From Patescibacteria group bacterium (GTDB taxonomy: Bacteria; Patescibacteriota; Microgenomatia; UBA8517), in assembly GCA_035291665.1 (NCBI GenBank), contig DATDRP010000003.1:84549-148548 (forward strand): a stretch of DNA of 64,000 nt, in the 5' to 3' direction. The translations under genes were made by a program, and so were the position numbers. The notes below the pieces were generated by a model. The model saw only the letters and a list, made by a program, of their open reading frames with translations, searched no databases and was not told the DNA's origin. The first letter of the stretch is position 1. Each line of letters opens with the position of its first letter. Positions 2,640 to 62,091 of the stretch are shown piece by piece.

Positions 2640-4076
2640 TCAATTCAACAACCTCTGGAGTTTATATAGATCTTTTATTGTTTTTTCCGAAAATATATTT
2701 TTATAACCCAGCCGCTTCGCCTCCTTCTCCCTTTTCTCCTCAAAAGATACAGTTTTTACATCTCCCAACAAACTTACTTCTCCGAAAAAAATACTATGCT
2801 CGCCAAAAGTTTTATTATAGTTCGAAGAAAGAATCGATGCACATACTGCAAGATCGATTGACGGATCGTTTTTGGCTGTAATACCACCGGCGATATTAAC
2901 ATAAACATCCGATTCATAAAGACGAACTCCAAGTCTTTTGCTAAGAACAGCAAGAAGAAGCTCAAGTTTTTTTGAGTCAATTCCTTGCGCAACACGTCTT
3001 GGTATTGCCATCTTTGTGGGAACAACAAGAGACTGTATTTCTATAAAAATCGGACGGGTTCCGTTAACAATTGCACTTATTACTTTCCCCGGAACTGATT
3101 TTTTGACATCGCTTAAGAATATCTTTTCAGGATCGCTCAATCCGATTAAGCCTTTGTCCTCCATGACAAAAATCCCCACTTCGTCTGTAGCTCCGAAGCG
3201 GTTTTTGACTGCCCGGACCATACGAACGGATAACGTTTTGTCGCCCTCAAACCAAAGAACAGTATCAACCAGATGCATTAAAACTGAAGGGCCTGCAACA
3301 CTACCTTGCTTAGTAACATGGCCAACTATGAAGATCGGAATTCCGGTGGACTTGGCAAACTTAATAAGTCGATACGCACATTCCCTCACCTGTCCTACCG
3401 ATCCCGCCATTCCCGACAGATCTGATGTTTGCATTGTCTGGATCGAGTCAATAATTATCCCTTGCAATTGCAAGGACTGTCCTTTTACGTTGTATATCGT
3501 TTCAATTATTTCATCTATATCTGTATCTTCAAGAAGCTGAATATTGTCGTTTTTTACACCCAATCTACTTGCTCTTATAGCAATTTGGCTAACCGATTCC
3601 TCACCGCTGACATAGATGACGGCAGATTGCTTGCTATCTACAGCAGATAGCTTTCTTTCACTTTCTGAGTTTCCTATTAATGCAGTCTTTTTGCTTTGGG
3701 CCATCTGCAATTTTGCAGCAGACTGTGGACTATTTGCTGTAAGCTGGTTTGCAACTTGCAGTAATAGCGTTGATTTTCCAATGCCGGGTTCTCCGGCAAT
3801 AAGTATTACTTGTCCGTTGACAATTCCCCCACCCAATACCCTATCCAGTTCAGGAATTTCAGTTAATATCCTTTCCGTTGACTTTTTCGGTACATCGGAA
3901 AGGCTTGTTAATTCTGCAATTCTCTCACTACTACCTTTTCTCTTTGCACTTTTCTCTGTTGAAACTATTGTTTCAACAGCACTATTCCACTCCCCGCATT
4001 CCGGACACTTCCCAAACCAACGATAGGATTCGTAAGAACATTGTTGACAGACATATATTGAACTTGATTTGGCCAT
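2640..4076 (-). CDS. radA: DNA repair protein RadA/Sms (zinc ribbon + RecA-like ATPase + Lon-like C-domain); extra ~35-aa insert after Walker A
   Basis: CQQCSYESYRWFGKCPECGEWNS zinc finger; GEPGIGKST Walker A; KNRFG motif; Lon-like C-terminus. Confidence 0.9.
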   Translation of the reverse strand: MAKSSSIYVCQQCSYESYRWFGKCPECGEWNSAVETIVSTEKSAKRKGSSERIAELTSLSDVPKKSTERILTEIPELDRVLGGGIVNGQVILIAGEPGIGKSTLLLQVANQLTANSPQSAAKLQMAQSKKTALIGNSESERKLSAVDSKQSAVIYVSGEESVSQIAIRASRLGVKNDNIQLLEDTDIDEIIETIYNVKGQSLQLQGIIIDSIQTMQTSDLSGMAGSVGQVRECAYRLIKFAKSTGIPIFIVGHVTKQGSVAGPSVLMHLVDTVLWFEGDKTLSVRMVRAVKNRFGATDEVGIFVMEDKGLIGLSDPEKIFLSDVKKSVPGKVISAIVNGTRPIFIEIQSLVVPTKMAIPRRVAQGIDSKKLELLLAVLSKRLGVRLYESDVYVNIAGGITAKNDPSIDLAVCASILSSNYNKTFGEHSIFFGEVSLLGDVKTVSFEEKREKEAKRLGYKNIFSEKTIKDLYKLQRLLN

Positions 4077-4092
4077 GTTTTATTAGAAAGAC

Positions 4093-4227
4093 TAGTGCAG
4101 TCCCGCACTTTCGCCCCTTCGACGCAAACACGCAATATTTGGGAGAAGGTAAGAATAGTGCTGGAACCAGCGCGGGCTCTCATATGAGCACTGCTGGCAT
4201 ATAAACTTTGAACTTGATCTGGCCATG
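4093..4227 (-). other. Upstream mimic ORF: divergent, synonymously recoded copy of radA codons 1-21 (MARSSSKFICQQCSYESPRWF) that reads through element A and stops 17 nt before the genuine radA ATG
   Basis: Reverse-complement translation from ATG (4224-4226) gives MARSSSKFICQQCSYESPRWFQHYSYLLPNIACLRRRGESAGLH*; radA itself begins MAKSSSIYVCQQCSYESYRWF; first 19 nt after the ATG are identical, then codons differ synonymously (CAA CAA TGT TCT TAC GAA vs CAG CAG TGC TCA TAT GAG). Confidence 0.6.
4098..4170. ncRNA. Copy A of a conserved ~75-nt structured element (core CCCCTTCGACGCAAACACGYARTATTTGGGAGAAGGYAAGAAYAGTGC), 22 nt upstream of the radA ATG; strand of action undetermined
   Basis: Near-identical cores at 4098-4170, 18847-18917 and 61652-61722; enclosing stems; compensatory change CCTTC/GAAGG (A,B) vs CCATC/GATGG (C). 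Confidence 0.55.
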
Positions 4228-4448
4228 TTTAATTATTCTTACGATTCGAATTATATCTAAAAAATAATAAATTAATAATAGTCATAACATTTGTTATGAC
4301 ATCTGATTAGTAATGTTAGTAATGATATTTTCCGTTTCCACCTTAGTTTGAATCGGAGGTTTTCTGATAAAGCGGATGAATCGGGGTGCCTGTACAATGC
4401 ACGTGCATCGCACAGACACCCAAATATAGTAAGTGTGGATCGTATTTT

Positions 4449-4895
4449 TTACTTTTTGGTGGAAACTGATTTGAAGATATTTTGTTGTCTACGCTCCTGC
4501 ATCAACTTTTCCAAATTGGGATTAATATCCACAAAGACTACTCCTCCTTTATTCCCTGGCGCCTGCGATTTATCATGAAGCGCTTTCATTTGTTCAATTA
4601 TTTGACCGCCCAGAAATGAAATCTGAGACATATCAAAAACATAAAATTGCAGGTTTCCCGATCTCATCATTCTTTCCAACCATTTCTTAGCAAGCTCAAC
4701 ATTGTTTGCTATCCCGTGTCTGCCGACATTTTCCATCAATTGAAATTGCTTAACCGGATCAACAAATACAACACCGGTTGTTTCCCCCGGTTTTCGTCCC
4801 AGATATTCCAACACCATCCCGCGGTATTCAACATTATCCGATCTTGTGAATTTTTCCAGCTCCATGTTTAATTGTAATACTCCAAGTCTAGTCAA
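4449..4895 (-). CDS. Hypothetical protein, possible STAS-like (anti-sigma-factor-antagonist-like) C-terminal domain
   Basis: C-terminal YVFDMSQISFLGGQIIEQMKAL...GGVVFVDINPNLEKLM resembles the STAS pattern. Confidence 0.3.
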   Translation of the reverse strand: MTRLGVLQLNMELEKFTRSDNVEYRGMVLEYLGRKPGETTGVVFVDPVKQFQLMENVGRHGIANNVELAKKWLERMMRSGNLQFYVFDMSQISFLGGQIIEQMKALHDKSQAPGNKGGVVFVDINPNLEKLMQERRQQNIFKSVSTKK

Positions 4896-7479: not shown

Positions 7480-7750
7480 AGACAGGATAAGTACTGGTAT
7501 AAGTTTAAGTCTATGAAATCGGTTGTAGGAAATGGGAAATGAGTTGTGAGTGGTGGGAACTGGAAAATGGAGATAAGTAAGTAGGTTGTAGGGGGTAGGA
7601 TGTTAGGAATAAAGGAATTAAGTAATTTAGTAAATTAGAGAAAAGTAGTAAGTTGTAAGAGGTAAGTTGTAGGTTGTAGGAGGTAGAAAATGGGAAATGA
7701 GTAATGGGAAGTGGGATGTGAGTAGTGAGTGATGGGTAATTAGTCTAAAG
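7480..7750. repeat. C-depleted (plus strand) / G-depleted (minus strand) low-complexity tract with GTAGGTTGTAGG-type motifs, upstream of rpsA on its coding strand
   Basis: ~270 nt almost devoid of C; motif GTTGTAGGTTGTAGGAGGTAG recurs. Confidence 0.8.
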
Positions 7751-8422: not shown

Positions 8423-8530
8423 AATATCTTCAAAATTGATAATTGTCCATTCAAACCATTTTAAATGTTAAATTGCAACTTTTTATTGCTCTTTATAAAT
8501 TCAAGGAGAAAGGACGACTCTCGTGCTTAG

Positions 8531-8669
8531 CGCGAGAATTTCTAATTTACAATTTAAAATTTCTATTGAATTTCAAATGACTTAATGTACTTAATTAAAA
8601 AATTGGGTCAATGAAAATTGAATAAAAGTTAAAAACTACATAACTAAAAATTCTTGTGCTATGCACAAG
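8531..8669. repeat. AT-rich ~140-nt repeat family, copy 1 (3' trailer of 23S); begins GCGCGAGAAT, ends in hairpin CTTGTGC-N3-GCACAAG
   Basis: Near-identical copies at 8531-8669, 11201-11340, 12953-13090; a related AT-rich insert sits in the 16S (27885-28010). Confidence 0.8.
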
Positions 8670-8790
8670 AGAAAAATGTCTTATTGACTGATTCGGTTAA
8701 GGTTAGCTTAACTCCTTACGGAGCTTCCACATCCTTCCGAACAACCTGGTATTCTTCCAGGAGTCTATAATGAACCCTAATCTTGGAGGG

Positions 8791-8823
<33 letters not shown>

Positions 8824-8954
8824 CTTAGGAATATAGCTACCCGGCTTTGCGGCTGACGCCACAACCGGCACACCAGAGATTCCTCCAGCCTGGTCCTCTC
8901 GTACTGAGGCCAGCTCTCCTCAAGGTTCTACGATTCCACCGGATAGAGTCCGAC

Positions 8955-9342
8955 ATATAGTATGTCAATACTTCGCATGTTTTTATTTCCGAACGATTTT
9001 TCGGAACTCACGATCGCTCGTGAGATCAGACTATATCTTGTACGTTCAGTTTAAATGAACGTACTCTGACGTATAGTCGTTGAGGATTCTACGTTCAGTT
9101 TAAATGAACGTAGCCTTTCCTGCTGATTGTCCGCACCTGTTGCTTTTTTACCCTGAACGACCAATATAAGTCGAACGGGTAGCACAGGATACAACGGAGT
9201 TCCCAGCAAATAGTCAAATTTATACTCGACTGGTCGAGTCCTATAATGATAACAGTTCTCTTTACTGATTGTTCAAATCAGAAGGTTCAAAAACGTGTTA
9301 TAGGAAGACAGCTCATGTCATTCCGATATGTTATCGAAATCA
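8955..9342 (-). mobile_element. ~390-nt ORF-less insertion at the 23S L2593-equivalent site (GACAGU|UCGG); candidate group I intron
   Basis: Flanking exon sequences align to E. coli 2585-2600 with ~390 extra nt between; 5' exon ends in U and the insert ends in G; contains modular hairpins (ACGTTCAGTTTAAATGAACGT twice). Confidence 0.45.
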
Positions 9343-9862
9343 ACTGTCTTACGACGTTCTGAACCCAGCTCACGTACCGCTTTAATGGGCGAACAGACCA
9401 ACCCTTGGCACCTTCTTCAGCGCCAGGATGCGATGAGCCGACATCGAGGTAGCGATCCGCGCCGTCGCTATGGACGCTCGGGCGCGACTACTCTGTTATC
9501 CCCGGGGTAGCTTTTATCCGTTAAGCTCCGTGCCTACCATGAGGCAATCGGAGGATCACTAAAACCTGCTTTCGCACTAGTTCGAGCCGTCGCTCTCACT
9601 ATCAAGCTGGCTTCTGCTTTTGCACATTGAAGTACGATGTCCATCCGTACTAAGCCAACCTTTGTGCCCTTGCGTTACTCTTTGGCAAGGTACCGCCCCA
9701 GTAAAACTGCCCACCTGACACTTTTCCTTCCGCCGTATCCAGGCGGAATAGGTAAGCCTCACATTTTCAAAAGAGTGGTATTACACTGTTCCCCGCAAAA
9801 TAAATCTGCGGGGTCCCACCTATTCTACACAATTCAAAAATATGAAAAGCAATGTCAAGCTG

Positions 9863-9893
<31 letters not shown>

Positions 9894-10025
9894 GTGGAAT
9901 TAGGCCGCGTCTTCACAGCCACCGCAATTTCGCCGAGTAGAGGCTCGAGACAGTTATTAACTCGTGACGCCGTTCATGCAGGTCGGAACTTACCCGACAA
10001 GGGGCTTCGCTCAAAACCTTATGAA

Positions 10026-10705
10026 AATCATCGTTGAGTTTTGGACTATATCTTCTCCGATTTGATCGGAGTTCGACGTATAGTCTCTGAGGATTCTAAA
10101 ACAGACTGGTTTCTTTTTTTTCTTGTATTCATTGTCTCGATAATATTGATAATTTTATTTATTCCATTTTTTGTTAAATGAGTTTTATTTTTCATTAACA
10201 AAAGTATTTTAGAAAATTTACTGAAATCATCTTTTTTAGAAGTTTTCAACTTATTTTCCTCAAAAAAAGGAATAATTATATCAAAAAGTTCCTTCTGAGA
10301 CTTCACACAATATCGAAAAAGATCTTCTCTGTGATTATCGTGTCTTCTGTTGACCGAAATTCTACCACATTTAAAAAATTTCATTACCGTAAATAATACG
10401 TTCTTACTTTTTTCTCCTTGCGATAAAACAAACTCGGGCATAATCTGATAACCCAGAGATGTAGTTGGATTCTTATGTAGGGTTACTGTAAAACAACCCT
10501 CTCCGTCTACAAATCCAACAATCCAGCCAATAAATTTTAGTCTTTCCTGCTGATTATCTTTACTGAATGCTTTTTCACTTGGTATCATCTACAGTATGAT
10601 GTTACCTTAGTAGCTTCAGATTAACAAGATTTTCCAGCATATAGTCGAATTTTACTACGGCAGTTTTGTATTGCCCTTACCGTAGAACAGTTATAGTTAC
10701 TGCTG
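10026..10705 (-). mobile_element. Group I intron at the 23S L1917-equivalent site carrying a LAGLIDADG homing endonuclease ORF
   Basis: Exon junction ...CUAUAACUGUUCUA | intron | AAGGUUUUGAGCGAAGCCCCUUGUCGGG corresponds to E. coli CCUA|AGGUAGCGAAAUUCCUUGUCGGG; ORF inside on the same strand. Confidence 0.7.
10046..10588 (-). CDS. LAGLIDADG-family homing endonuclease (single-motif type)
   Basis: IGWIVGFVDGEGCF matches the LAGLIDADG motif; located inside the rRNA intron. Confidence 0.85.
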   Translation of the reverse strand: MIPSEKAFSKDNQQERLKFIGWIVGFVDGEGCFTVTLHKNPTTSLGYQIMPEFVLSQGEKSKNVLFTVMKFFKCGRISVNRRHDNHREDLFRYCVKSQKELFDIIIPFFEENKLKTSKKDDFSKFSKILLLMKNKTHLTKNGINKIINIIETMNTRKKRNQSVLESSETIRRTPIKSEKI

Positions 10706-11200
10706 CCGTTTACCGGAGCTTTGCTTCACCCCATAAGATATCGCTTGCGCGATACCAAACAGGGATCCGTTTAACTTACCGGCACTGGGCAGGCGTCAGC
10801 CCGTATACTTCGCTTTTCAGCTTTGCACGGACCTGTGTTTTTGATAAACAGTCGGTTAATAAACTTTCGCTGCAACCCCGATTAAATCGGGGCAACCCAT
10901 CTCCCTAAGTTACGGGTAGTTTTTTTGCCGAATTCCTTAAGCCTCTTTCTCTCGCTCGCCTTACTATACTCTAGTAACCCACCTGTGTTGGTTTTGGTAC
11001 GGCTTACCTTGAATCTCACTGCGAATCTTTTCTCGTAGACAGAAATGTATGGAATAGTCCAAGTAAACTTAAACTCTGCATAACTCATCGATTAATCGTT
11101 TCAGCGGATTTCCCAACTGATACTATCTATAAGCTTGCACCCCACTTCACGAAGGGGCTCCAATTTTCCTATCCAGTCAATCCCCAGTTACTCATACGCT

Positions 11201-11340
11201 GCGCGAGAATTTTTAATTTACAATTTAAAATTTATATTGAATTTCTAATGACTTAATGTACTTAATTAAAAAATCGGGTCAATGAAAATTGAATAAAAAT
11301 TAAAAACTACATAACTAAAAATTCTTGTGCAACGTACAAG
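11201..11340. repeat. AT-rich repeat family copy 2, inside the 23S (E. coli ~1500 region)
   Basis: Aligned to copies 1 and 3; terminal hairpin CTTGTGCAACGTACAAG. Confidence 0.8.
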
Positions 11341-11707
11341 TTTGGCGATTCAAGACAAATACAGGAATTTTAACCTGTCATCCATCGACTACCCCCGCCC
11401 CTTTTTTGACAATAGCTTACGGAAATTTCATCTTTGGAAGGCGAAACGCCTCAAATTGTGTTGAGCCGTTTTCGGCTTCCGGGGTACGAAAATCCATTAA
11501 ACATTATCGAAAAAGGGGCGGGGCTTGCCTTAGGTGCCGACTAACCCGTCGAGGACGAACCTCGCGACGGAATCCTTGGGTATTTGGCGGACCAGATTCT
11601 CACTGGTCTAGTGCGCTACTCATACCGGCATTCTCACTCCCATTCGCTCCACCCAACTTTACAGTTGAACTTCACAGCAAATGGAACGCTCCCCTACCAC
11701 ACTCGCT

Positions 11708-11872
11708 CGCAGTTCGAGAAAATTCAAATGATAAATATCAAATGACAAATCAATCACAAATAACAAAACTTTAAAAGAGAAAATAATTTAAATTCTTTTG
11801 TCCTCTTTTTAATTTTGAGTTTGAATTGAATTTTGTGATTTGAGTTTTGAATTTCCTTGTACTGCGAACAAG
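11708..11872. repeat. Hairpin intervening-sequence family copy a, at 23S helix 45 (GCAGUACAAGG...CGAACUGCG arms)
   Basis: ~165-nt long inverted repeat inserted where E. coli has helix 45 (GCGGCAGCGACGC...); near-identical copy at 12499-12663. Confidence 0.75.
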
Positions 11873-11936
11873 CATCTCTGGCTTCGGTATTATCTTTAAT
11901 CCTCGATTAATTTTCGGCGCCTACTTCCATCGACCA

Positions 11937-11993
<57 letters not shown>

Positions 11994-12498
11994 TTATGGA
12001 AATAAACTTCCTTTGAAACTTAAGATAAATTTAGAGACCTTAGCCGAAAGTCTGGGTTGTTTCCCTTTACCCGCATCAGCTTAGCCCGATGCGAGTGTCT
12101 AGCGTGATAATGTACACCGTTATTCGGAGTTTGGTTGAGTGAACTTGGTTGCCCTCGTCCACCCATTCAGTAGCTCTACCATCGGTAACACCTTACACGC
12201 CACGGTCCCTATAGACCTTTCGGGGAGAACCAGCTATCTCCAGGTTCGTTTGGCATATTACCCCTATCCACAAGTCATCCCAAGTCATTGCAACGACAAC
12301 GGGTTCGGGCCTCCTCCCGACTTTCGTCGGGATTCACCCTGCTCATGGCTAGATCACCTGGTTTCGGGTCTTATCTCACATTCAAAATCGCGCTATTAAC
12401 ACTTGGTTTCCCTACGCCTCCCCCCGCAAAGCGGGGTTAGACAAGAATATAAGATAAACTCGCCGGTTCATTCTTCAATAGGCACGATATCACTCGCA

Positions 12499-12663
12499 CG
12501 CAGTTCGAGAAAATTCAAATGATAAATATCAAATGACAAATCAATCACAAATAACAAAACTTTAAAAGAGAAAATAATTTAAATTCTTTTGTCCTCTTTG
12601 TAATTTTGAGTTTGAATTGAATTTTGTGATTTGAGTTTTGAATTTCCTTGTACTACGTACAAG
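12499..12663. repeat. Hairpin intervening-sequence family copy b, at 23S helix 25
   Basis: Inserted after GAACCUGAAAC...CUUGUACGUAGUACAAGG, the helix-25 position; ~95% identical to copy a. Confidence 0.75.
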
Positions 12664-12728
12664 CTCTATCGGTTTGTCCGCAAACAGTTTCAGGTTCTAT
12701 TTCACTGGGCGTCCCGCCCTTCTTTTCG

Positions 12729-12760
<32 letters not shown>

Positions 12761-12952
12761 TTCTGCTTATATTTAGCCTTGGAAGATGGTTCTCCCAGAT
12801 TCCCACGAAGATGTCGATCGTGGTACTTAGGAAATCCCTAGAGTCATTTTTCATTTCGTATACAAGACTATCACTTTCTATGGTCGGCAATTCCATGCCG
12901 TTCTACTATGAAAAATGATCCCACATTGGGCTCCTGCAACCCCCTGCACTCT

Positions 12953-13090
12953 GCGCGAGAATTTCTAATTTACAATTTAAAATTTCTAATTAATTTCTAA
13001 TGACTTAATGTACTTAATAAAAAATCGGGTCAATGAAAATTGAATAAAAATTAAAAACTACATAACTAAAAATTCTTGTGCAAAGCACAA
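12953..13090. repeat. AT-rich repeat family copy 3, inside 23S domain I (after GUAGCGGCGAGCGAA)
   Basis: Aligned to copies 1 and 2. Confidence 0.8.
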
Positions 13091-13101
13091 GGTTTAGGCT
13101 T

Positions 13102-13132
<31 letters not shown>

Positions 13133-13810
13133 ATTTCCCCCGCTGAGCGGGGGTTGTTTTCTTTTCCTTCGGGTACTTAGATGTTTCAGTTTCCCGAGTC
13201 TCCTCCGAAAGAGCTATGTGCTTCGCACAAGGTGGCCTACAGCTATTTGACTACAGACTACAGGAAAAACTGTGACTGTAGACTGTTGACTGTAAGCAAA
13301 CTTATGCGAAGCGCTTTTACTCTTTGGTCCTCCGTTATGAGACGGAGTGGGTTTCCCCATTCGGACACCGCCGGGTCACAGGATCGTGGCTCCTATCCGA
13401 CGATTATCGCAGCCTTGCGCGTCCTTCTTAGGTAAGCAAAACCAAGGCATCCACTGTTCGCGTTAGTAAAGACATTTACCTCGTGTATAAACACGAGGAT
13501 TTTGGCCTTTCTCCTTAAATTTTTAAAGAGCAAATTAACTTGTTAATTTGCGATGTATCCGCCAACAAACGCCCCTTAAGTCGTGTTCGAACAGAACTAA
13601 AAGACTTAAGGTAAGTTGCGGCGGAAAAGAGCACTGTTTCAAAAAAGAAACAGCTTCTATCTCTCGCAAATCTGTTAATGTTCATCTCTTTAGTATCTGA
13701 AAGATGGTGACTCGCGGTTTAAAATATTATCCAAACCGCCAATCACCATTTCTCAAATGTCAAAGTCTTCCTTATACTCTTCTACTCTCACGCTCTTACA
13801 CTCTAAATTA

Positions 13811-15203: not shown

Positions 15204-15241
15204 AAATAATAATTTGCGACATATTGAAAATTGAAAACGAG

Positions 15242-15313
15242 GGCGCGTGGCTCAGTGGTAGAGCGCCTTCCTGATAAGAAGGAGGTCCTAGGTTCGATCC
15301 CTAGCGCGCCCAC
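15242..15313 (+). tRNA. tRNA-Ile (anticodon GAU), intact, 72 nt
   Basis: GGGCGCG-UG-GCUC-AGUGGUA-GAGC-G-CCUUC-CUGAUAA-GAAGG-AGGUC-CUAGG-UUCGAUC-CCUAG-CGCGCCC-A. Confidence 0.85.
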
Positions 15314-15339
15314 AAAGTTCTCAATTTTCACTATAAGAA

Positions 15340-15372
15340 AGAAGTGCTAGGTTCGATTCCTAGGCAGCCCAC
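15340..15372 (+). pseudogene. tRNA 3' half-fragment Y (T-arm CUAGG-UUCGAUU-CCUAG + GCAGCCC-A)
   Basis: Complements fragment Y 5' acceptor strand. Confidence 0.45.
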
Positions 15373-15420: not shown

Positions 15421-15470
15421 GTTCGTTATAAGAACGAGGTCCAAGGTTCGATCCCTAGCGCGCCCTCCAC
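15421..15470 (+). pseudogene. tRNA 3' half-fragment X (anticodon arm CGUUC-GUUAUAA-GAACG, T-arm, CGCGCCC-U-CCA with encoded CCA)
   Basis: Nearly identical to the 3' half of tRNA-Ile; together with 15092-15139 would give a complete Ile-like tRNA (anticodon UAU). Confidence 0.5.
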
Positions 15471-15479
15471 AGATTACTT

Positions 15480-15650
15480 ACAACTAAAAACTTAAGGCTA
15501 ATTACACCCACTACTCACTTCTCACTACCCACATCTCACTACTCATTTCCTATCTCTTACCGCCTACATCCTACAATCAATCGCCTACTCCCACTTCCCA
15601 CTACTCACTTCTCATTACTTAATATCTTAAAATCCTTCATATATAATGAA
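15480..15650. repeat. G-depleted low-complexity tract (CTACTCAC / CCTACAAC motifs) upstream of the ATPase gene
   Basis: 170 nt with essentially no G on the plus strand. Confidence 0.8.
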
Positions 15651-15653
15651 GTT

Positions 15654-17771
15654 ATGCTTAAAACATTTGTTTTGAAAGTTCCAAGAGAGAATGTCGAAAC
15701 CCCCGAAGCAACACAAACTTTTTTATCAGCGCTTACCACGCTTAATCCGACAAGTACTCTTGAAAAATTACTTATAAAAAACCAAAAAGCTCTTGCTCTC
15801 GAAATTGTGCTTCAAAACCAGCAAATTACATTCAGGGTGGTTTGTGATTCTGAATTTGAACATCTGGTTACCACACAAATCCAGTCAAACTATCCGCTTT
15901 GTGTCATTCAGAATGCTGAAAATGAAATTTCCTTTGAAGACCTGACTCTGACAAAGGTTAACTTGAGGTTTGGTAATTTTTACCCGATTCAAACTTATGC
16001 TTCTTTCCGGGATTTGGATCCAATGTCGTCATTTTTATCGCTTCTTTCAAAGGCAACACCGAATGACGTCGTAATCATTCAATACGCTCTTGAGGCAGCT
16101 GGATCTTCCTGGCAGGCGAAAGGTAAAAACTTTGCTCTTTCAGGAGCCAAAAAAGCTGATGGGTCATTTGGTCCCAGACCCGACCAAAATGTCGTTAACG
16201 AAAAGATATCATTCCAAGGATTCAAAGTATCCATTCGGATAGCATCTAATTCGAAAACAACTCAAAAAGAACTTGCATCCGTGTATGATATTTTTAACCG
16301 CCCCGACGGCAATAGTTTTCGATCTTCATCCGTCATCAGGCTTTTTTTCAAAAAAGAAATGGCAAAATTCAAGAACCGGCTTTGCAGTGATTCTCAAATC
16401 CTTAACACTCCGGAGTTGGCAACGCTATGGCACTTGCCCGGTGAAAAAATAAAAGCCCCCTTAATTTCCTGGGGTTCAACAGTTTTATCAGAACCACCGG
16501 AAAATCTTCCGGTTGCAAAAATCATGTCCGATGAAGAAAAATCCCATGTCAACTTTTTTGCAAAAACACAGTTTAAGAATGAAGAGAGCATTTTCGGAAT
16601 CAAAGACAAGGATAGGCTTCGTCATGTCTGGACTGTCGGAAAAACCGGAACCGGAAAATCAACAATGATTGCCAACATGGCAATCGATGACATAAAAAAA
16701 GGGCGTGGAGTTGCGGTTATTGATCCGCACGGAGATCTTTGTGATGACATACTGGATTACATTCCCAGCTCCCGTATAAATGACACAATTTATTTCAATC
16801 CGGCTGACCGCGAATTTCCAATCGCACTCAATCCTCTTGAAGTAACAAATAAAGAAGAGGCGGAATTGGTTGTATCCGGACTGATGAGTATCTTTACCCG
16901 AGTATGGGCTAATGTTTGGTCTGCAAGAATGGAATATATTCTCCGTAACTCATTCATGACTTTGGCAGAAATCCCCGACTCGACGTTGGAGGACGTACTC
17001 CACTTGTTGGCGAATCAGACTTTCCGAAACAGAGTTCTTTCAAAAGTAAAAGACGACGCTATCGTAAAATTCTGGAAAGACGAGTTCGATCAAATGCCGG
17101 AAACATTACAAAAAGAAGCGATTGCACCAATCCAAAATAAAGTCGGACAATTTGTAACATCGCCTTTAATGAGAAGAATCCTTTCAAAACCAAAGTCCGC
17201 CATTTCGATTGACGACATCATGAATAACGGAAAAATATTTTTGGCCAATCTTTCCCAAGGCCGTCTCGGTGAAGACAACTCGGCGCTTCTGGGTGCAACA
17301 CTTATCACAAAAATTCAAGTTTCCGCAATGAGACGTGTGGACATTCCGAAAGATGACCGCCGGCCGTTTTACTTGTACGTTGATGAGTTTCAGAACTTCG
17401 CCACCGATTCATTCATCCGAATTCTATCAGAAGCAAGAAAATACGGATTGGCTCTGACTTTGGCTAATCAATATATGGCGCAAATTCCTCCCAACATACA
17501 AAAAGCAATTCTCGGAAACGCGGGAACTCTGGTTGCTTTCACAATCGGCGCAGAAGATGCCCAAATTGTACATCGGGAATTTGCCGAGGTGTTTTCGCAA
17601 AACGATTTGGTTAATTTGAAAAACTATCAAATTGCAGTGAAACTAATGGTCGATGCCCATTCAACCAGGCCCTTCTTTGCCTATACATTGCCTCTTCCCG
17701 CGCAGAGTAACCAAAACCGCCCCAAAGTGATTGCAGTTTCCCGGGAAAGGTGGGGAAAAAAATCGACGTAA
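15654..17771 (+). CDS. P-loop NTPase of the HerA/FtsK/VirB4 clade (DUF87-like), 705 aa, with ~300-aa N-terminal domain of unknown function
   Basis: VGKTGTGKST Walker A; AVIDPHGD (HerA/VirB4-like); LYVDEFQNF Walker B; no SD upstream. Confidence 0.6.
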   Translation: MLKTFVLKVPRENVETPEATQTFLSALTTLNPTSTLEKLLIKNQKALALEIVLQNQQITFRVVCDSEFEHLVTTQIQSNYPLCVIQNAENEISFEDLTLTKVNLRFGNFYPIQTYASFRDLDPMSSFLSLLSKATPNDVVIIQYALEAAGSSWQAKGKNFALSGAKKADGSFGPRPDQNVVNEKISFQGFKVSIRIASNSKTTQKELASVYDIFNRPDGNSFRSSSVIRLFFKKEMAKFKNRLCSDSQILNTPELATLWHLPGEKIKAPLISWGSTVLSEPPENLPVAKIMSDEEKSHVNFFAKTQFKNEESIFGIKDKDRLRHVWTVGKTGTGKSTMIANMAIDDIKKGRGVAVIDPHGDLCDDILDYIPSSRINDTIYFNPADREFPIALNPLEVTNKEEAELVVSGLMSIFTRVWANVWSARMEYILRNSFMTLAEIPDSTLEDVLHLLANQTFRNRVLSKVKDDAIVKFWKDEFDQMPETLQKEAIAPIQNKVGQFVTSPLMRRILSKPKSAISIDDIMNNGKIFLANLSQGRLGEDNSALLGATLITKIQVSAMRRVDIPKDDRRPFYLYVDEFQNFATDSFIRILSEARKYGLALTLANQYMAQIPPNIQKAILGNAGTLVAFTIGAEDAQIVHREFAEVFSQNDLVNLKNYQIAVKLMVDAHSTRPFFAYTLPLPAQSNQNRPKVIAVSRERWGKKST

Positions 17772-17779
17772 GTTGATTT

Positions 17780-17930
17780 TTTTGATAAAAGTACATATTT
17801 CTCTATTTTCTTTATTCTAAACTACTTAATTACTTAAACCCCGTATTTCCCAATACTCACATCCCACTTCCCACAACTCAATTTCTATCTCTTACCCTAC
17901 AACCTACTTCTTACAACCTAACATCGTTTT
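17780..17930. repeat. G-depleted low-complexity tract (CCCTACAACCTAC motifs) followed by its C-depleted mirror at 17990-18050
   Basis: Composition and motif reading. Confidence 0.8.
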
Positions 17931-18046
17931 CACCGGTACATTTAGACCTATAATAACGAACACTATTCTCCCCCATTAGCTTGTGAAAAGAATGTGAAAG
18001 ATGAATAGTTGTAGGTTGTACGATGTAGGAGGTAGGATAAGATATA

Positions 18047-18697: not shown

Positions 18698-18747
18698 ATT
18701 GCTCTTTTATAAAAATAGTGATAACTCAATAACCCTCCGATAAATCT

Positions 18748-18805
18748 TGGCACGAGGCGTATACGAATAGTATTGAAAAGCCGAATGCTAAAAACAGTAG
18801 GGTGT
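18748..18805. promoter_or_regulatory. Conserved ~55-nt element TTGGCACGAGGCGTRTAYGAATARTAYTGAAAARCC (second copy at 54631-54690); promoter-like
   Basis: ~75% identity between the two copies; the 54631 copy lies 20-60 nt upstream of the start of the minus-strand gene 54261..54599. Confidence 0.35.
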
Positions 18806-18846: not shown

Positions 18847-18917
18847 TGCATTGCGACAGTCCCGCACTTTTGCCCCTTCGACGCAAACAGGTAGTATTTG
18901 GGAGAAGGCAAGAACAG
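18847..18917. ncRNA. Copy B of the structured ~75-nt element (no downstream minus-strand gene; carries a 41-codon ORF MFFNLYSSPGTVLAFSQILPVCVEGAKVRDCRNAKIQRVLK)
   Basis: Core alignment with copies A and C; outer stem GTCCCGCACT / AGTGCCGGGAGAC. Confidence 0.5.
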
Positions 18918-20553
18918 TGCCGGGAGACGAGTAAAGATTGAAGAACATTTTCGCGATTAGTGAAAGGTAGCCAGTTGACCGCCTTGAGCGGATTTCAACT
19001 TGCTGCCTTCCACTGGTCACGAGGACCAGTGTCTTTTGTTTAAGACGAGGGGAAGCAGGAAGTAAGCAGTAAGAAGTAAGGAATAAGCAATAGCGCATAT
19101 CACCTACAACCTACCGCTTACGACTTACAACCCATTTGTTCTTTAACAACTTTGCTGTTTACCACGTTCAATTTATTTGAGCGTGGATATAATTAAGGAA
19201 AAAGGAACCCTATTATATTTTTTCGATCGCGAGGACTACGGTTCTCGCGTCACGGAAGTAGTATAACGGGGTAAGAAAAGGGAATCCGCAATATCTTAAA
19301 TAATAAGGTATGTGCGGGATACCGGGGTTAGATAGTTTTTTAAAAAGACTTCTAACAGGACATGGGGTTAAATGATATATATAGATAGTCTCCTTTTTTC
19401 AAATGTCCCCTATTAATGGAGGGAACAGAGACCGTAATTATTTGCGGTTTCTTTTCCCTTCATTTTTTTGGGGCTAAAGTCCTTGGAGTTTTTTTGTTTT
19501 GGTTTAAGGCTTCGCCTTAGGCCACGTTTTTTGAATGCTGAAACATGCGATATAGTCGATTGAAGACTACGGTCTTTGTCGATACAAAAATATCAAAATG
19601 TTTTACCAGCTGTAATTCTAAATCCTTAAAAATTTAGAAGTTGGATAACCTTCAAAAAACAAAAACGAAAACAGAACCAATATGAAATTTATATTGGCGA
19701 AGTCCCGTACCGAATTTATTCTGGTGCGTGGAAAAACTTCAAAAGATTGCATCGCAAAGGATTATTATCCTGAGCGAAGACAAGTTTGACTTGTTGCAGT
19801 CGAAGGACTTCCTTTATTTCGGTTAGCCTGCTTTGCGAGCACTTCTCCTTTAAAAAGAGATTTATCAACTGAAACCAAAGGCACCCAGGATGGCGATAAA
19901 ATTCCTACTTGTAGAAGTTCGCACCCGCTTCGCGACACGCATTTCCGAGTTCTTTTCTTCCGTAAACCCGAGAAGAATCGAAATCTTATGCGCGATAAGA
20001 AGAAAAAGTAAATCGAGCAATCGATTAAAAGGCCTTCTTTTTATGACAAGGAAAACTGCGGGGGTATAAGACCTATCAAAATCTTATATTCAATCCGTAC
20101 CAGTCATTTGGGATTGTGACCCAACAAGGCAACAACTCAGGGATCAATCGCAACCAAGCTCAGCTTGGTAATCCTGTTTTGTATCAAAACCACTACGGTT
20201 AGATACGAAGAGATCTCGCATTTATACATGTTAAATGTGTAGAAATCGGGAAAAGCGAAAATCCAGCTCAGCTGGAGTACTTATCTTAAGTACGCGGAAA
20301 CTGGACAAGCGTTTTTTGTTTTTGCTTTGAAGAGACTTCTTCTTTTCTTCTTTATAAACAGAGAGTTTCCGGTGCACCCAACAAAGGTGTCATCCGCAAG
20401 CTACGAAGCTTGATTATAGAAACTGATATGTAGGATATCGGAGAGAAAGAAAAGAATTGGAGAAGTAGGAACGGAAGACGGCATTCAGGAGATGCGGAAA
20501 AATTTTATCAATCAGGTGTAGTTTTACCTGAATTCAGAAAAAAGGAGAATGTT

Positions 20554-23125: not shown

Positions 23126-24905
23126 GCGGGATCCTCCCCTCTCCCTTTCCTTCTTTCTTTCCTTAGGGATCAGATAATCACGTAAATTATTATTTATTAA
23201 AAAAACGTGATTGGACAAGAACAGTAAATTTTTATCAACTGTTACTTACCTACTCAGCTACGGCTGAATAATTTGATTTTTTCCATGAGCAAGTCTTGTG
23301 GAAAATATAATTTCGACACTCTGTAGTTTCGTGCTACGGAAACGATTTTATGCCCAACGGATTGAAAGTTGGAAAGGTTGAGAGTGGGAGGACCTGCGGG
23401 TTCGTACCAATATTTCTTAAACCAGATACCATTCGGTACCTGGCTACTTTTTCCTAATTCCCTCCAGTGCATATTCTTGCACGGAGTAAACCCCTTATTC
23501 GAGTCAAACTCGAGGAATCAACCTGATTACCGGTTGATAAGGGAAGGTTTATTCAAGTTCAACTTGAATAAACATAGACTTTCTTCCGCGGAAGAAGTTT
23601 GGAGAGCCATTGGCCCTTCAGATCACTCTTTCCGGATGAAAGCAGCAATAAAAAGGTATTGTGTGGAAATTTTGGGAAACCAAAATTTCAGATTCTGAAT
23701 TTATTCAGGATGACAAACACACAACAACCTTCTCTACTTTTTTTAATTTTGTCTACGGACAATATTAAAAAATCCCAAAAGGAATTTAACCGAAAGGTTA
23801 AATGTAGAGAAAAAGCGATAAGACTTATGCAAATTCTGCATAAGTCTTTGAAGTCAGGTGCCATATGGTACCTGACAGGTGATTTAGTTGTTGTTTTTGA
23901 GCATGGTGATTGAATCTCCAAAGAGATTCTTTCATTAAATCGAGTCCAACTTGATACCGCCCAAATAACAAATAAACTTTAATCACATTCAGATATCCTC
24001 GTGGTATCTGATCCCCCTTCGCTCTTACGAGCTACGAAGGGAAAAAACGTTTCCCATCCTCCTTCGTTCTGCACAGCAGAACTTTGGAAGGATACAATCG
24101 GCAACAACTTGCCGGTAGCAAATATTAAGCAATTGCTACATGGCGGGTTGCGCCATAGGGTATAACGAAGGGGCCTACTAGTTTGGTTTTTTCAAGATGG
24201 AGTGCCAAAGCTGGCGCTCAATATGACACCCGAGTAAGACTCGGACACAATCATACACATCTCGAAAAACAAATAAACTAGCAGGCCCCAAAAACAAAAA
24301 AACTTACAAGGCAAGTTAGAGAATGGAGAAAAGAGAAGAGTTCAAAGTTAGTATTAAATTGGTAGATAGTAGATTGTAGATCTTATATGGGGATAAAAAT
24401 CCTTCCCTATATTTCATATACCGTATGCTATAAACCAATTGTGTTACTTATTAGTCAGCAAAGTTCTTTAAAAATTTATTATTTAGTACAAAGCGAAAAG
24501 CGAAGAGAAAAAAGTTTTTAAGAAGTTAGTTTGAAACGCTTAATTCTTTATTCTATATACTAATTATAGTGTTCGAAAGCGTGGGGGTTAATCCCGTTAA
24601 TAAACCTCTAAAGCAACCACCCAGCTCAGCTGGGTAGGTAGGAAATTTTCGGTTCTCCCGGGGAATATCCAGGAAAGCCAAAATTTGAGATTGCCCCCAC
24701 ACTTTTGAACATAAAAATAGTGATTAGTGCAATGCTTGCAAGGACTGTCCTTGTACGCTGTGTATAGTAATTACTCATAACTCACCACTCATAACACACT
24801 TCTTATAACTTATCCCTCACCCCTACAACCAATCGCTTATTTCATATTGTTTTCGACAAAGAGTCTCCCAGTCACAAACCCGGAATTCATAATTAATCCC
24901 ATGAC

Positions 24906-37065: not shown

Positions 37066-37414
37066 AGTTTCTCACCACCGTTCTTAGCCTGAAGACGATC
37101 GGCTAACAATCAACACTTCAATTGAAGAAAATGTTTAAGTATTTTCCAAAATCAGTCTCAGACGAACTGTTCATCATAAATCGATGAACACATAAGGCAT
37201 TATACATCATATCCGCAAAAATATCATTCCTGAAGAGAAATCAATTCAAATCCGGAGGAAAAATAATATCTTTCAAGTTCTTGCCTGTTGCTTCTTCGAA
37301 ATTTCAAAAACCCTTCAACGTTTCAATCCGGGATGGTTTCTTTTGCAAGTGCTCGATACTTATAATTACCGATATAATATCATGTGGTAAGATATTTTAA
37401 AATCTATCGCAATT

Positions 37415-37527
37415 ATGACATCCTCCACGGACTAAAGTCCGTGGTTTCCCATGAGGGAGGATGACATATCAAATTCAATTCCTCCACGTTCAGTTTACAT
37501 GAACGTGGTTTCCTTGAAATTGTTATG
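37415..37527 (+). promoter_or_regulatory. TIR promoter-cassette element T2; its last 3 nt are the ATG of the 37525 gene
   Basis: ATGACATCCTCC-[CACGGACTAAAGTCCGTG]-GTTTCCCATGAGGGAGGATGACAT-ATCAAATTCAATTCC-[CCACGTTCAGTTTACATGAACGTGG]-TTTCCTTGAAATTGTTATG. Confidence 0.6.
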
Positions 37528-51697: not shown

Positions 51698-51723
51698 CTG
51701 TTAATTTTACTTTAAATAATACT

Positions 51724-51895
51724 ATGACATCCTCCCCGCTCTTGCTAGCGGGGTTTCCTCCAAAGGAGGATGACATATCAGAATTCAATTCCCTGCACCA
51801 TCCGGTGCAGGACCAAGTCCCATGCCGAATGGCATGGGGCATCCCCGATTGAATCGGAGTTTTCTTGAAGTCTGTTATAATTGAAAAAATTTATG
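51724..51895 (+). promoter_or_regulatory. TIR promoter-cassette element T3, ending TGTTATAAT-N12-ATG of the 51893 gene
   Basis: ATGACATCCTCC-[CCGCTCTTGCTAGCGG]-GGTTTCCTCCAAAGGAGGATGACAT-ATCAGAATTCAATTCC-[CTGCACCATCCGGTGCAG]...[CCCATGCCGAATGGCATGGG]...TCTGTTATAATTG. Confidence 0.6.
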
Positions 51896-54260: not shown

Positions 54261-54599
54261 TCAAATTTTCTTTACAAACTTTCTTGCGTATCCTCCAAGT
54301 ACCGGATATTCAAATTCCTCACCTTTCCAAGCTTTATAAATCAAAATCAACCATGAAACAAAAGACAATACACCCAGAAGCCCGGACAGCGGCGCTAAAA
54401 TTATTGTAACTGCCAAAATCCAACCCAGTATAAAATAAAATCCAAAAACGACAATTGACTGCATCGCATGGAAGCGCACGAAGGAATTTTTCTCAAGCAA
54501 CAAAAAGGCTACACCTGTTATTGGGCCCAATAAATAAGTTAATCCTCCTGCAGTATTTTTCGGTAATCCTGTAACCAACTTCTCTTCTTTTTCAGGCAT
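54261..54599 (-). CDS. Small membrane protein (DUF4870-like), SD GAGGGGTGGTGA
   Basis: Two TM helices. Confidence 0.45.
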   Translation of the reverse strand: MPEKEEKLVTGLPKNTAGGLTYLLGPITGVAFLLLEKNSFVRFHAMQSIVVFGFYFILGWILAVTIILAPLSGLLGVLSFVSWLILIYKAWKGEEFEYPVLGGYARKFVKKI

Positions 54600-54702
54600 A
54601 AATTATCACCACCCCTCGCCCGCCGATCAATTTTGGCACGAGGCGTGTATGAATAATACTGAAAAACCAAGTGCGAAAATAAGGCGGGTTCGCTCTTCTA
54701 CT

Positions 54703-55668: not shown

Positions 55669-55801
55669 AACAATTTCAAGGAAACCCCGCCCAGGGCGGG
55701 GAGGTCTCCGACTCAGAGAGTCTCTGACTCGGAGAGATTTGAATTTGATATGTCATCCTCCCTCACGGGAAACCACGGACTTTAGTCCGTGGAGGATGTC
55801 A
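55666..55801 (-). promoter_or_regulatory. TIR promoter-cassette element T4; ends exactly at the ATG of the exchanger gene (GTTTCCTTGAAATTGTT-ATG)
   Basis: Reverse complement ATGACATCCTCC-[ACGGACTAAAGTCCGT]-GGTTTCCCGTGAGGGAGGATGACAT-ATCAAATTCAAATCTCTCCGAGTCAGAGACTCTCTGAGTCGG...CCCCGCCCTGGGCGGGGTTTCCTTGAAATTGTTATG. Confidence 0.6.
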
Positions 55802-55844
55802 TAATAATTACCCTTTAATGCTACCATAATAATTTTTAACAATT

Positions 55845-61630: not shown

Positions 61631-61647
61631 ATTATCTTGAAAATGGA

Positions 61648-61791
61648 TTAGCCCCGAACAATCACCCCATCGACGCAAACACGTAGTATTTGGGAGATGG
61701 CAAGATCTGTGCGGGGCCCGTTATCTTCCCCATTCGATACCGGTGATGGTTGATATAACTTTTTCAAATCATCGAGATCAAAAATCTTCAT
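61648..61791 (-). other. Upstream mimic ORF: 47 codons MKIFDLDDLKKLYQPSPVSNGEDNGPRTDLAISQILRVCVDGVIVRG; its first ~26 residues are a diverged copy of the Nnr N-terminus (MKTFDKNELHKLFKPKNNSLGEQNGQ); reads through element C and stops 17 nt before the nnr ATG
   Basis: Codon-by-codon reverse-complement translation from ATG 61789-61791; 14/26 identities with the downstream gene's N-terminus. Confidence 0.55.
61652..61722. ncRNA. Copy C of the structured ~75-nt element, 22 nt upstream of the nnr ATG
   Basis: Core ...CCCCATCGACGCAAACACGTAGTATTTGGGAGATGGCAAGATCTGTGCGGGGC; outer stem GCCCCG/CGGGGC; CCATC/GATGG covaries with CCTTC/GAAGG of copies A and B. Confidence 0.55.
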
Positions 61792-61931: not shown

Positions 61932-62091
61932 ATGACATCCTCCACTTTACTTATGTCCGTGGTCTCCCCTGAGGGAGGATGGTATACCGTGCCTGCCGGC
62001 AGGCAGGTCAGAGTTCAATTCTCTCCGAGTCAGAGACTCTCTGAGTCGGAGACCTCCCCGCCCAGGGCGGGGTTTCCTTGAAATTGTTATG
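61932..62091 (+). promoter_or_regulatory. TIR promoter-cassette element T5; ends in the ATG of the 62089 gene (GGGGTTTCCTTGAAATTGTT-ATG)
   Basis: ATGACATCCTCC...GAGGGAGGATGGTAT-[CCTGCCGGCAGG]-AGTTCAATTCTCT-[CCGAGTCAGAGACTCTCTGAGTCGG]-[CCCCGCCCAGGGCGGGG]-TTTCCTTGAAATTGTTATG. Confidence 0.6.

Follow-up and report, generated by a model that had tools for sequence, protein, structure and literature searches.

Probably mobile hairpin repeats that separate duplicated gene starts in Candidatus Woesebacteria

In a 64,000-nt stretch of a Patescibacteria group genome (contig DATDRP010000003.1 of assembly GCA_035291665.1, positions 84,549 to 148,548; hereafter the window), the start of radA is present twice, and a GC-rich hairpin of about 68 nt lies between the two copies. 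The same layout occurs at an unrelated gene, nnr, and at radA and nnr genes of other species. Our data suggest that these hairpins are probably imperfect palindromes that have been dispersed and mobile over evolutionary time in Candidatus Woesebacteria, the candidate-phyla-radiation lineage to which the closest kin of the window's RadA and Nnr belong, and that they split duplicated gene starts. Among several explanations, a preliminary description of the radA locus had listed an insertion element that displaces the 5' end of a gene or brings one with it, and this is the candidate that the data favor. Below, W1, W2 and W3 are the hairpin copies of the window at radA, in an intergenic region and at nnr, respectively; L numbers are sequences from other assemblies or genomes; and coordinates of radA, nnr and W1–W3 refer to the minus strand (Table 1). 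The window as a whole has a GC content of 39%.

At radA, the first 21 codons of the intact gene (4014–4076) form the downstream copy of a direct repeat (family D14), and the upstream copy, here called the mimic, precedes the hairpin. The two copies (4165–4235 versus 4015–4085) share 72% nucleotide identity, with a local alignment score of 62 against 18.5 ± 2.8 in shuffled sequences. The repeat is a mosaic, with 26 of its first (5') 28 nt identical and about 58% identity over the remainder. A second ATG (4226–4224), 150 nt upstream of the radA ATG, opens a frame of 44 codons (MARSSSKFICQQCSYESPRWF-QHYSYLLPNIACLRRRGESAGLH*) that reads through the mimic into the hairpin. The mimic had been described as encoding the same 21 residues as RadA, and its frame as stopping 17 nt ahead of the gene; in fact 16 of 21 residues are identical (10 codons carry synonymous changes, including Ser AGC versus TCC), and the distance is 15 nt. 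The insertion point falls after codon 20/21 (...TGGT/TCCCNGCAC, the slash marking the junction). Between the hairpin and the real ATG lie CACTAGTCTTTC, which is unique, and TAATAAAAC, which is part of the repeat, with no promoter-like match in this interval. The promoter-like site of the locus is instead found just upstream of the mimic ATG, so transcription probably starts at or adjoining that codon. A terminator-like hairpin of the upstream unit is located at 4281–4300.

The layout at nnr is the same, in agreement with the preliminary description, which had linked the element to gene-start copies at two unrelated genes. Here the mimic and the real start share 13 of 25 residues, the insertion point falls after codon 25/26, and the upstream frame (61648–61791) stops 17 nt before the real ATG (61630). 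In an assembly made independently from the same population, a JGI contig (L020, C687J35164_10002211) breaks about 330 nt upstream of a DUF5654 gene, inside the nnr mimic/hairpin region, a position consistent with the repeat causing contig breaks. The third copy, W2, lies about 3.5 kb from a tRNA-Ile gene accompanied by att-like partial repeats and by a gene for a type IV coupling protein. A 28-nt core pattern of the hairpin matches the window at W1–W3 only, versus zero matches expected by chance, and about 7 kb of host genome beyond the window held no further copy. Two weak covariance-model matches may be diverged relatives: the apical part of one (19206–19279; CGAGGACTACGGTTCTCGCGTC) resembles by eye that of the L018 hairpin, and the other (13551–13625) is located in the spacer adjoining the 23S rRNA gene. 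The idea that W2 carries a mimic of a nearby 71-nt repeat (D13) was dropped, as the layout differs.

Table 1. Positions of the hairpin copies, the duplicated gene starts and associated features in the window.
Feature	Position	Strand	Remarks
Intact radA, 478 aa	2640..4076	-	ATG at 4076; Pfam Zn_ribbon_LapB, AAA_25, DnaB_C; homologues named RadA/Sms
Tail and linker, hairpin to real radA ATG	4077..4097	-	Holds the stop of the upstream frame and a weak -10-like TCTAAT
Upstream open reading frame, 44 codons	4092..4226	-	Mimic, then hairpin, then stop TAG (4094-4092), 15 nt before real ATG
Hairpin W1, 5' T(T)CCAGCAC ... GTGCGGGACTG 3'	4098..4165	-	Covariance-model match 4093-4167, 93 bits; fold -29.8 kcal/mol
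Mimic of radA positions -9 to +62	4165..4235	-	Direct repeat of 4015-4085
Promoter-like site, TTTAGA-18-AATAAT or TAGATA-16-AATAAT	4232..4261	-	Ends 5 nt before mimic ATG
Possible diverged relative of the hairpin	13551..13625	-	Outer stems AACTTACCTT ... AAGGGGCGTTTGT common, apex different; model R2, 16.9 bits, E 0.06; weak
Hairpin W2, intergenic, no mimic, no flanking duplication	18852..18926	-	Pattern and covariance-model matches
Possible diverged, AT-richer relative, inverted with respect to W2 and ~280 nt from it	19206..19279	+	Covariance model R2, 17.3 bits, E 0.05; weak
Intact nnr, NAD(P)H-hydrate dehydratase, 286 aa	60770..61630	-	100% match to a protein of that name; Pfam PF01256
Hairpin W3 (nnr)	61650..61716	-	Covariance-model match 61644-61718, 87 bits; fold -32.7 kcal/mol, z -2.9
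Mimic of nnr codons 1-25 (MKIFDLDDLKKLYQPSPVSNGEDNG)	61717..61791	-	Directly after a TATAAT box

Every copy of the element folds as one long imperfect hairpin (-23 to -33 kcal/mol), and this single-hairpin structure is strongly backed by covariation. Across eight distinct copies from five genomes, 90.9% of cells fall in standard pairs, compared with 75% in shuffles and 32–49% with slid partner columns; 15 of the 26 pairs have changed on both sides, none of 500 shuffles reached the observed values, and a six-copy set gave the same picture. The element is thus the discrete structured unit that had been proposed, though covariation alone would be produced by an RNA hairpin and a single-stranded-DNA hairpin alike. 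Loop and bulge sequences are nearly invariant (CTT-R-C, CTCCC-R-AA, TT-Y-GCGT), and the U-G pairs lie on the gene-sense strand. Besides the three copies in 64 kb, five further distinct copies occur in other genomes, with covariance-model scores for the dispersed copies of 54–93 bits. The L008 element (2286–2367) is a longer, diverged variant that was missed by both covariance models and aligned by eye only.

The element contains fewer stop codons than expected (19 versus 43), with only four in 24 sense frames and all three sense frames open in four of eight copies, as expected for a repeat that survives inside translated sequence. The element does not appear to be a coding fragment: a conserved 'SQILRVCVEG' frame was considered and rejected, since the open frame differs among loci and four copies have every sense frame open. 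Translations of the hairpin in all frames found no match at E≤10 in a protein database, the peptides being too short for such a search. The tails that follow the hairpin group by target gene (GGGACTGC[AG]C at radA and GGG[GA]CTA[AT]TCC[AG]TTT at nnr), while the apical part of W3 matches that of W1 and W2 in the same genome and is unlike that of nnr copies in other species. Together, gene-specific tails and genome-specific apices suggest old, gene-specific insertions whose hairpin centers have been homogenized within each genome.

The radA layout of promoter, mimic, hairpin, linker and real ATG recurs in three further species (L008, L013 and L014/L015), with the same junction at every such locus (...TGGT/(T)CCCNGCAC), in keeping with the earlier view that the duplication is systematic and not a chance event. 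The RadA proteins of the four element-bearing genomes share 61–65% pairwise identity and are as distant as any in the sample. At nnr, the full layout is present in L018 at the same nnr codon, and L016 holds a degraded version, reduced to ATGAGAAATTTTGAT from the mimic plus the hairpin's 3' half. The extra loci were noticed via odd gene calls among RadA and Nnr homologues, either N-terminal extensions that translate the hairpin 3' end or N-terminally truncated calls. Exact-pattern scans of GTDB genomes and JGI metagenomes added one species (L005–L007), the pattern being too strict for diverged members. Assembly chimerism, which had been raised as a possible source of artefact, is ruled out by this recurrence and by window positions 4000–4450, which are base-identical in four assemblies made independently from different samples, three of them JGI metagenomes of the Rifle aquifer and the fourth a Logan assembly built from an SRA run.

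Comparison of close relatives reveals presence/absence polymorphism at orthologous sites. The radA site is empty in L010, whose RadA is 85% identical to that of L008, and in L021, whose RadA is 85% identical to that of L014. The preliminary description had asked whether orthologues carry the mimic and the element; radA of L008, L013 and L014 and nnr of L018 do, nnr of L016 does in degraded form, and radA of L010 and L021 does not. Beyond these two genes, L016 carries a full reverse-orientation copy inserted in frame and without duplication in a P-type ATPase gene, between the conserved promoter/ATG and the Cation_ATPase_N motif, and the orthologous site in L018 is empty. In L005, a copy lies ahead of the hrcA promoter and CIRCE operator, flanked by only a possible 8-nt repeat (TACTTGAC). 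These copies and W2 all lack a mimic, so the mimic is not an intrinsic part of the element. The hairpin thus behaves like a mobile palindromic repeat rather than a dedicated regulator. Several copies are also decaying: a Cys of the mimic has become Tyr in L014, the L008 mimic is frameshifted, and L016 has lost most of the mimic and half of the hairpin. Decay in some lineages argues against an indispensable device. The L008 frame change lies in a run of seven C (2268–2276) that shifts the radA mimic relative to RadA and could be either a true frameshift, that is, mimic decay, or a homopolymer sequencing error.

It is the mimic that sits at the native start of the gene; the functional start is the secondary copy after the hairpin. 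In L014, the mimic and the DNA upstream of it align with the native promoter and start of the empty-site relative L021, including 17 identical bases (TAATATTTGCATGTGGT), and the real copy aligns with L021 coding sequence. Furthermore, TATAAT boxes lie 5–8 nt before the mimic start in W3, L008, L013 and L014, and promoter-like matches at W1 are likewise found only before the mimic. The mimic is therefore best read as a displaced former gene start. In most loci, the 5' edge of the repeat coincides with the start codon to within about 2 nt, which is where transcription would be expected to start if the genes are leaderless, as they apparently are. L013 and L014 have a native GTG start; their repeat opens at the TGG there, and the A that completes the new ATG comes from the inserted DNA.

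At all seven loci, the frame that begins in the mimic crosses the hairpin without a stop and ends close to the real ATG. This upstream open reading frame (uORF) stops 15, 17, 11 or 14 nt before the gene at four loci and overlaps the gene start by 4 (ATGA, in L018), 8 or 14 nt at the other three. Such a geometry has a 9–17% chance of arising at any one locus when the intervening sequence is shuffled; the loci are not independent, and the stop codons differ in kind and position. The position of the uORF ends suggests that translation of the real gene is probably coupled to that of the uORF by termination and re-initiation, or that uORF ribosomes at least keep the hairpin open.

These observations would fit together as follows. 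The palindromes tend to occupy or adjoin gene 5' ends, and at radA and nnr the hairpin parts the native promoter and first codons from the remainder of the gene. The gene would survive thanks to a second complete start directly downstream of the hairpin, which extends from about the start codon (and about the transcription start) to the insertion point. Transcription would still come from the native promoter, ribosomes would load at the old start and read through a hairpin that is nearly stop-free on its sense strand, and upstream translation would end at points that range from 17 nt ahead of the real ATG to 14 nt inside the gene. More tentatively, the insertion may be self-rescuing: the hairpin could enter the 5' ends of essential or housekeeping genes because its insertion brings a fresh copy of the gene start, with the old start becoming a coupled uORF. 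That copy might conceivably be templated by the target's own transcript, over the part between its 5' end and the insertion point, or be carried over from a previous host and recombined. Whether by one route or the other, it is possible, though less likely than not, that the generation of the duplicate start represents a new insertion mechanism.

Several points weigh against a mobile repeat that splits gene starts. The short target-site duplication usual for miniature inverted-repeat transposable elements, or MITEs, is missing: W2 has no flanking repeat, and the repeats at radA and nnr are 60–80 nt long and diverged. We could link no transposase, integrase or reverse transcriptase to the element, and no transposase or cognate autonomous element turned up in the window, in which ten open reading frames were scanned against Pfam. 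An identical insertion codon at about 61–65% RadA identity would require insertions of great age followed by many losses, or else a strong specificity for the site. There are eight full copies in total, the loci are not independent, and promoter use and translational coupling are inferred solely from sequence. Finally, synonymous sites are nearly saturated with amino acids kept at four of five loci, where simulated neutral decay rejects a simple duplication in situ.

This last point calls for a closer look at the divergence between the two gene starts. Within a genome, mimic and real copy differ at a proportion of 0.71–0.95 of synonymous sites (pS; 0.76–0.95 in W1, L008, L013 and W3, and 0.71 in L014) and 0.18–0.38 of nonsynonymous sites (pN). 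Similar values are obtained between species, for real versus real and mimic versus mimic copies, such that the two copies in one genome are about as diverged as orthologues from distant species. We simulated a duplication in situ followed by neutral decay of the mimic and strict conservation of the real copy. The observed amino-acid identity was improbable under this model for W1 (P<0.0005), L013 (P=0.003), W3 (P=0.005) and L008 (P=0.01), and fitted it for L014 (P=0.08). The pattern at the four deviating loci suggests either that one copy came from another lineage or that the upstream frame is under selection.

The preliminary description had noted GC-richer codons in the radA mimic as a hint of foreign origin, and this holds for radA in the window, where the G+C fraction at third codon positions (GC3) is 0.60 in the W1 mimic (top 2% of windows) versus 0.30 in the real 5' end and 0.34 in the whole gene. 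It does not extend to nnr (0.40 versus 0.52 in the real 5' end) or to L008, whose mimic is lower than the whole gene (0.25 versus 0.45); in L013, the mimic and the real 5' end have equal GC3 (0.36), and the GC-richer synonymous codons over codons 7–20 are in the real copy. Real copies have a GC3 like that of the host. Over codons 7–20 there are two sequence types, one of each per locus, in an order that is swapped in W1 and L014 relative to L008 and L013, and the W1 mimic is identical to the L008 real copy at 18 of 18 positions over nt 22–39.

One tentative option for the origin is a gene-start cassette: a hairpin, together with a linker and a 5' piece of radA or nnr acquired in an earlier host, would recombine into the homologous 5' segment of the resident gene, by a Campbell-type crossover or site-specifically at a short ...TGGT or ...AACGG core. 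One copy would then be native and the other foreign, and the crossover position would set which of them is upstream. This origin would account for interspecies-level divergence with conserved amino acids from the time of insertion onward, for the W1 mosaic, for mimic codon composition that is atypical of the host in either direction (GC3 up in W1, down in L008), for the swapped sequence types and the 18-nt match between the W1 mimic and the L008 real copy, and for tails that group by target gene; divergent repeats would also be those that escape deletion. However, the insert is only about 150–180 nt long and encodes no recombinase, and neither two pattern scans of viral contigs nor a blastn search against phage records turned up a free, plasmid-borne or phage-borne form. 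In L014, moreover, the real copy resembles the native start of L021 (2 of 13 identical-residue codons differ versus 46% gene-wide) and the mimic fits neutral decay, which favors duplication in situ there. The two sequence types largely follow host codon usage and so may not mirror ancestry, and they are only 60 nt long.

Alternatively, and to our minds with no better than a modest chance, the insertion event itself may duplicate the target's own sequence. This could happen through a very long staggered-cut target duplication or through an RNA-templated process, in which the insertion point, once nicked, would prime a copy of the nascent mRNA as far as its 5' end, followed by a jump onto the hairpin RNA. 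The repeat boundary, which lies within about 2 nt of the start codon in L013, L014, L008 and the nnr loci with a TATAAT 5–8 nt upstream, would then coincide with the expected transcription start of a leaderless mRNA, as read from the sequence; the repeats that begin at the TGG of a native GTG in L013 and L014, with the A of the new ATG from inserted DNA, and the neutral decay of the L014 mimic would also fit. So would the lack of duplication where rescue is unneeded, as in the intergenic W2, L005 and the in-frame ATPase copy. Set against this are the failure of the neutral-decay test at four of five loci, a W1 repeat that reaches -9, past the likeliest transcription start, a 33-nt linker in L008 with no counterpart upstream of the mimic, and the lack of a reverse transcriptase linked to the element. 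Later divergence would need selection on the upstream peptide or on repeat dissimilarity, and radA and nnr may be just two independent events. The copy differences are not adenine-specific and hence not like those of a diversity-generating retroelement (DGR); a DGR template/variable repeat pair was rejected by direct comparison at radA, where only 5 of 20 differences are at template adenines. On balance, L014 appears to support duplication in place and the other loci seem to fit the cassette idea better, on segments of just 60–75 nt.

A dedicated cis-regulatory RNA is improbable. The hairpin and leader peptide would here act as an attenuator, riboswitch-like element, processing site or ribozyme, with the mimic as a sensor peptide. 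The strongly conserved structure, the conserved loop and bulge sequences, U-G pairs that favor the mRNA-sense strand and a uORF that ends beside the real start in all loci are consistent with such a role. W1 also holds a small alternative hairpin (AGTGC-GGGACT-GCACT) followed by a T-rich run and flagged as terminator-like, with weaker equivalents by eye in L013, L014 and W2. But in folds of the full leaders, the hairpin is the sole structure in common, with no conserved terminator/antiterminator alternative of the kind that the leader-peptide attenuator considered earlier would use; an extended mRNA structure that would join the mimic to the real start was likewise not seen in these folds. Rfam at its gathering threshold identified nothing for the element; its sole matches in the window were rRNA, tRNA and a single group I intron, which lies in the 23S gene. 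Around W1 or W2 no relevant family appeared even at E≤10, so that the self-cleaving or regulatory RNA of the preliminary description gains no support from known families. Copies without a downstream gene (W2), ahead of a promoter (L005) or antisense in a coding region (L016) are difficult to reconcile with regulation, as are the functionally unrelated targets, the absence of the layout from the close relatives L010 and L021 and its decay in L016, L014 and L008.

It is very improbable that the mimic is still used as a first 'exon', with the DNA from the hairpin to the end of the second copy spliced out or bypassed from ...UGG U to the matching ...UGG U: although this would account for purifying selection on mimic amino acids, for a hairpin that begins exactly at the would-be take-off site and for the same short sequences at both borders (TGGT and AACGG(G)), every downstream copy has an intact ATG and reading frame, upstream copies are decaying in several lineages (Cys loss, frameshift, deletion), group I/II intron signatures are lacking and the borders depart from the splice-site rules of group I, the take-off codon is not followed by a stop, and a gap of 150–180 nt far exceeds the 50 nt of T4 gene 60. 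A group I or bulge-helix-bulge intron was also rejected: there was no model match, the borders are unfit, and the two copies have the same sense and are not complementary.

The probable mobile repeat proposed here has partial parallels among known elements. Phage 21 and e14 bring a replacement gene end at icd. SXT targets the 5' end of prfC and brings a replacement gene end as well (PMC2791158). As at radA and nnr, these insertions leave two non-identical gene ends, one joined to the gene and one a fragment, with differences that are mainly synonymous. In contrast to the present insert of 150–180 nt, which holds no gene or recombinase, SXT and phage 21 span kilobases and have a tyrosine integrase and defined attP/attB sites; unlike such gene-end-replacing integrase elements, the present hairpin occurs together with different genes.

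Rickettsia palindromic elements (RPEs), like other MITEs found within genes, are short dispersed palindromic repeats that are tolerated inside protein-coding genes (PMC10969869). Open frames run through RPEs as they do here, and the L016 ATPase copy is in frame, as RPEs are. The likeness is one of build; RPEs measure about 150 nt versus about 68 nt for the present hairpin, and the host phyla are unrelated. RPEs are also simply translated as part of the protein, whereas radA and nnr have a duplicated start and an upstream frame, a feature of which, to our knowledge, there is no description among RPEs or MITEs. Dispersed copies, a conserved hairpin and site polymorphism are MITE-type traits, here without a short target duplication. 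The REP/REPIN, ERIC, Correia and SPRITE repeats are likewise dispersed, family-specific hairpins of similar size and conserved structure, and, as in REP/REPIN-type families, copies in one genome resemble each other (the apical sequences of W1–W3). REP-type repeats are mostly extragenic with short or no target duplications, however, and neither the preference for gene 5' ends nor the duplication of the start characterizes those families. No gene like that of the REP-associated tyrosine transposase (RAYT) was seen for the present element.

The upstream frames resemble coupled uORFs and leader peptides in that a short open reading frame ends a few nucleotides from the main start or overlaps it (ATGA in L018). 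Unlike ordinary leader peptides, the uORF here consists of what is left of the gene's own start, joined to a repeat, and no regulatory codons or alternative structures were found. T4 gene 60, with its bypass gap of 50 nt, and the 'byps' of Magnusiomyces mitochondria are GC-rich hairpin insertions in coding sequence of AT-rich genomes, with matching codons at their flanks. Matching TGG T sequences stand at both borders here too, around a gap three times longer; unlike bypass elements, the present insertions are followed by a full second start codon and N-terminus, and no stop follows the take-off codon. In limited literature searches we came across no account of a hairpin repeat that is coupled to a gene-start duplication, and we know of none for the split, duplicated-start layout.

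The window contains other features that may be of interest. A 71-nt repeat occurs at 18733–18803 and 54619–54689 (minus strand), with 79% identity and an enclosing stem ACCCGCC...GGCGGG; the latter copy lies about 20 nt upstream of a DUF4870 membrane-protein gene (54261–54599), like a structured 5' leader, and the former just downstream of W2, followed by a terminator and no gene. This repeat has no Rfam match and could represent a cis-regulatory RNA that has not been described. Palindromic repeats of a second family (ATGACATCCTCC ... GGAGGATGACAT), which is unrelated to the hairpin, are found at 37414–37471, 51723–51780, 55754–55810 and 61932–61989, with one copy about 140 nt upstream of the nnr mimic. 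The 23S rRNA gene (8672–13477, minus strand) spans 4.8 kb and contains a group I intron (9007–9284) and a LAGLIDADG endonuclease reading frame (10046–10588), and repeats of 140–174 nt occur in its region (8530–8669, 11201–11340 and 12953–13092; 11700–11873 and 12491–12664), a content that points to several insertions. A free-standing gene for a '23S rRNA-intervening sequence protein' (PF05635; 18047–18400, plus strand) lies near W2, outside any rRNA gene.

The 23S and 16S rRNA genes are separated by about 14 kb, and in the interval tRNA-Ile (15241–15313) is followed by two partial copies of its 3' half (15327–15370 and 15422–15465), as typical of attachment-site duplications, and then by a type IV secretion coupling protein gene (TrwB/TraG-type; 15654–17771). 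This region, which includes W2, may be the remnant of an integrated conjugative element. Strongly strand-skewed, low-complexity spacers recur in many stretches between genes (1169–1240, 7507–7737, 15516–15637, 17851–17920, 18007–18042, 19103–19127 and 24776–24821), pyrimidine-only on one strand (CACTTCTCACTACCC..., CCTACAACCTAC...) and purine-only on the other.

Taken as a probable mobile family, the hairpins described here would add to the repeats of candidate-phyla-radiation bacteria one for which we found no description. The split, duplicated start and coupled uORF would provide a route by which repeats persist in the 5' ends of conserved genes, and we know of no bacterial repeat described as inserting into genes without killing them by way of a fresh start. 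There is also a practical warning for annotation, as gene callers lengthened or truncated radA and nnr at these loci (P0021, P0044, P0092, P0210, P0220). The divergence of the two starts poses a testable puzzle, which may reflect exchange of gene-start cassettes between lineages or selection on the relic peptide. If the duplication does prove to be made from a transcript, it would mean that a retro-type insertion process operates in bacteria.

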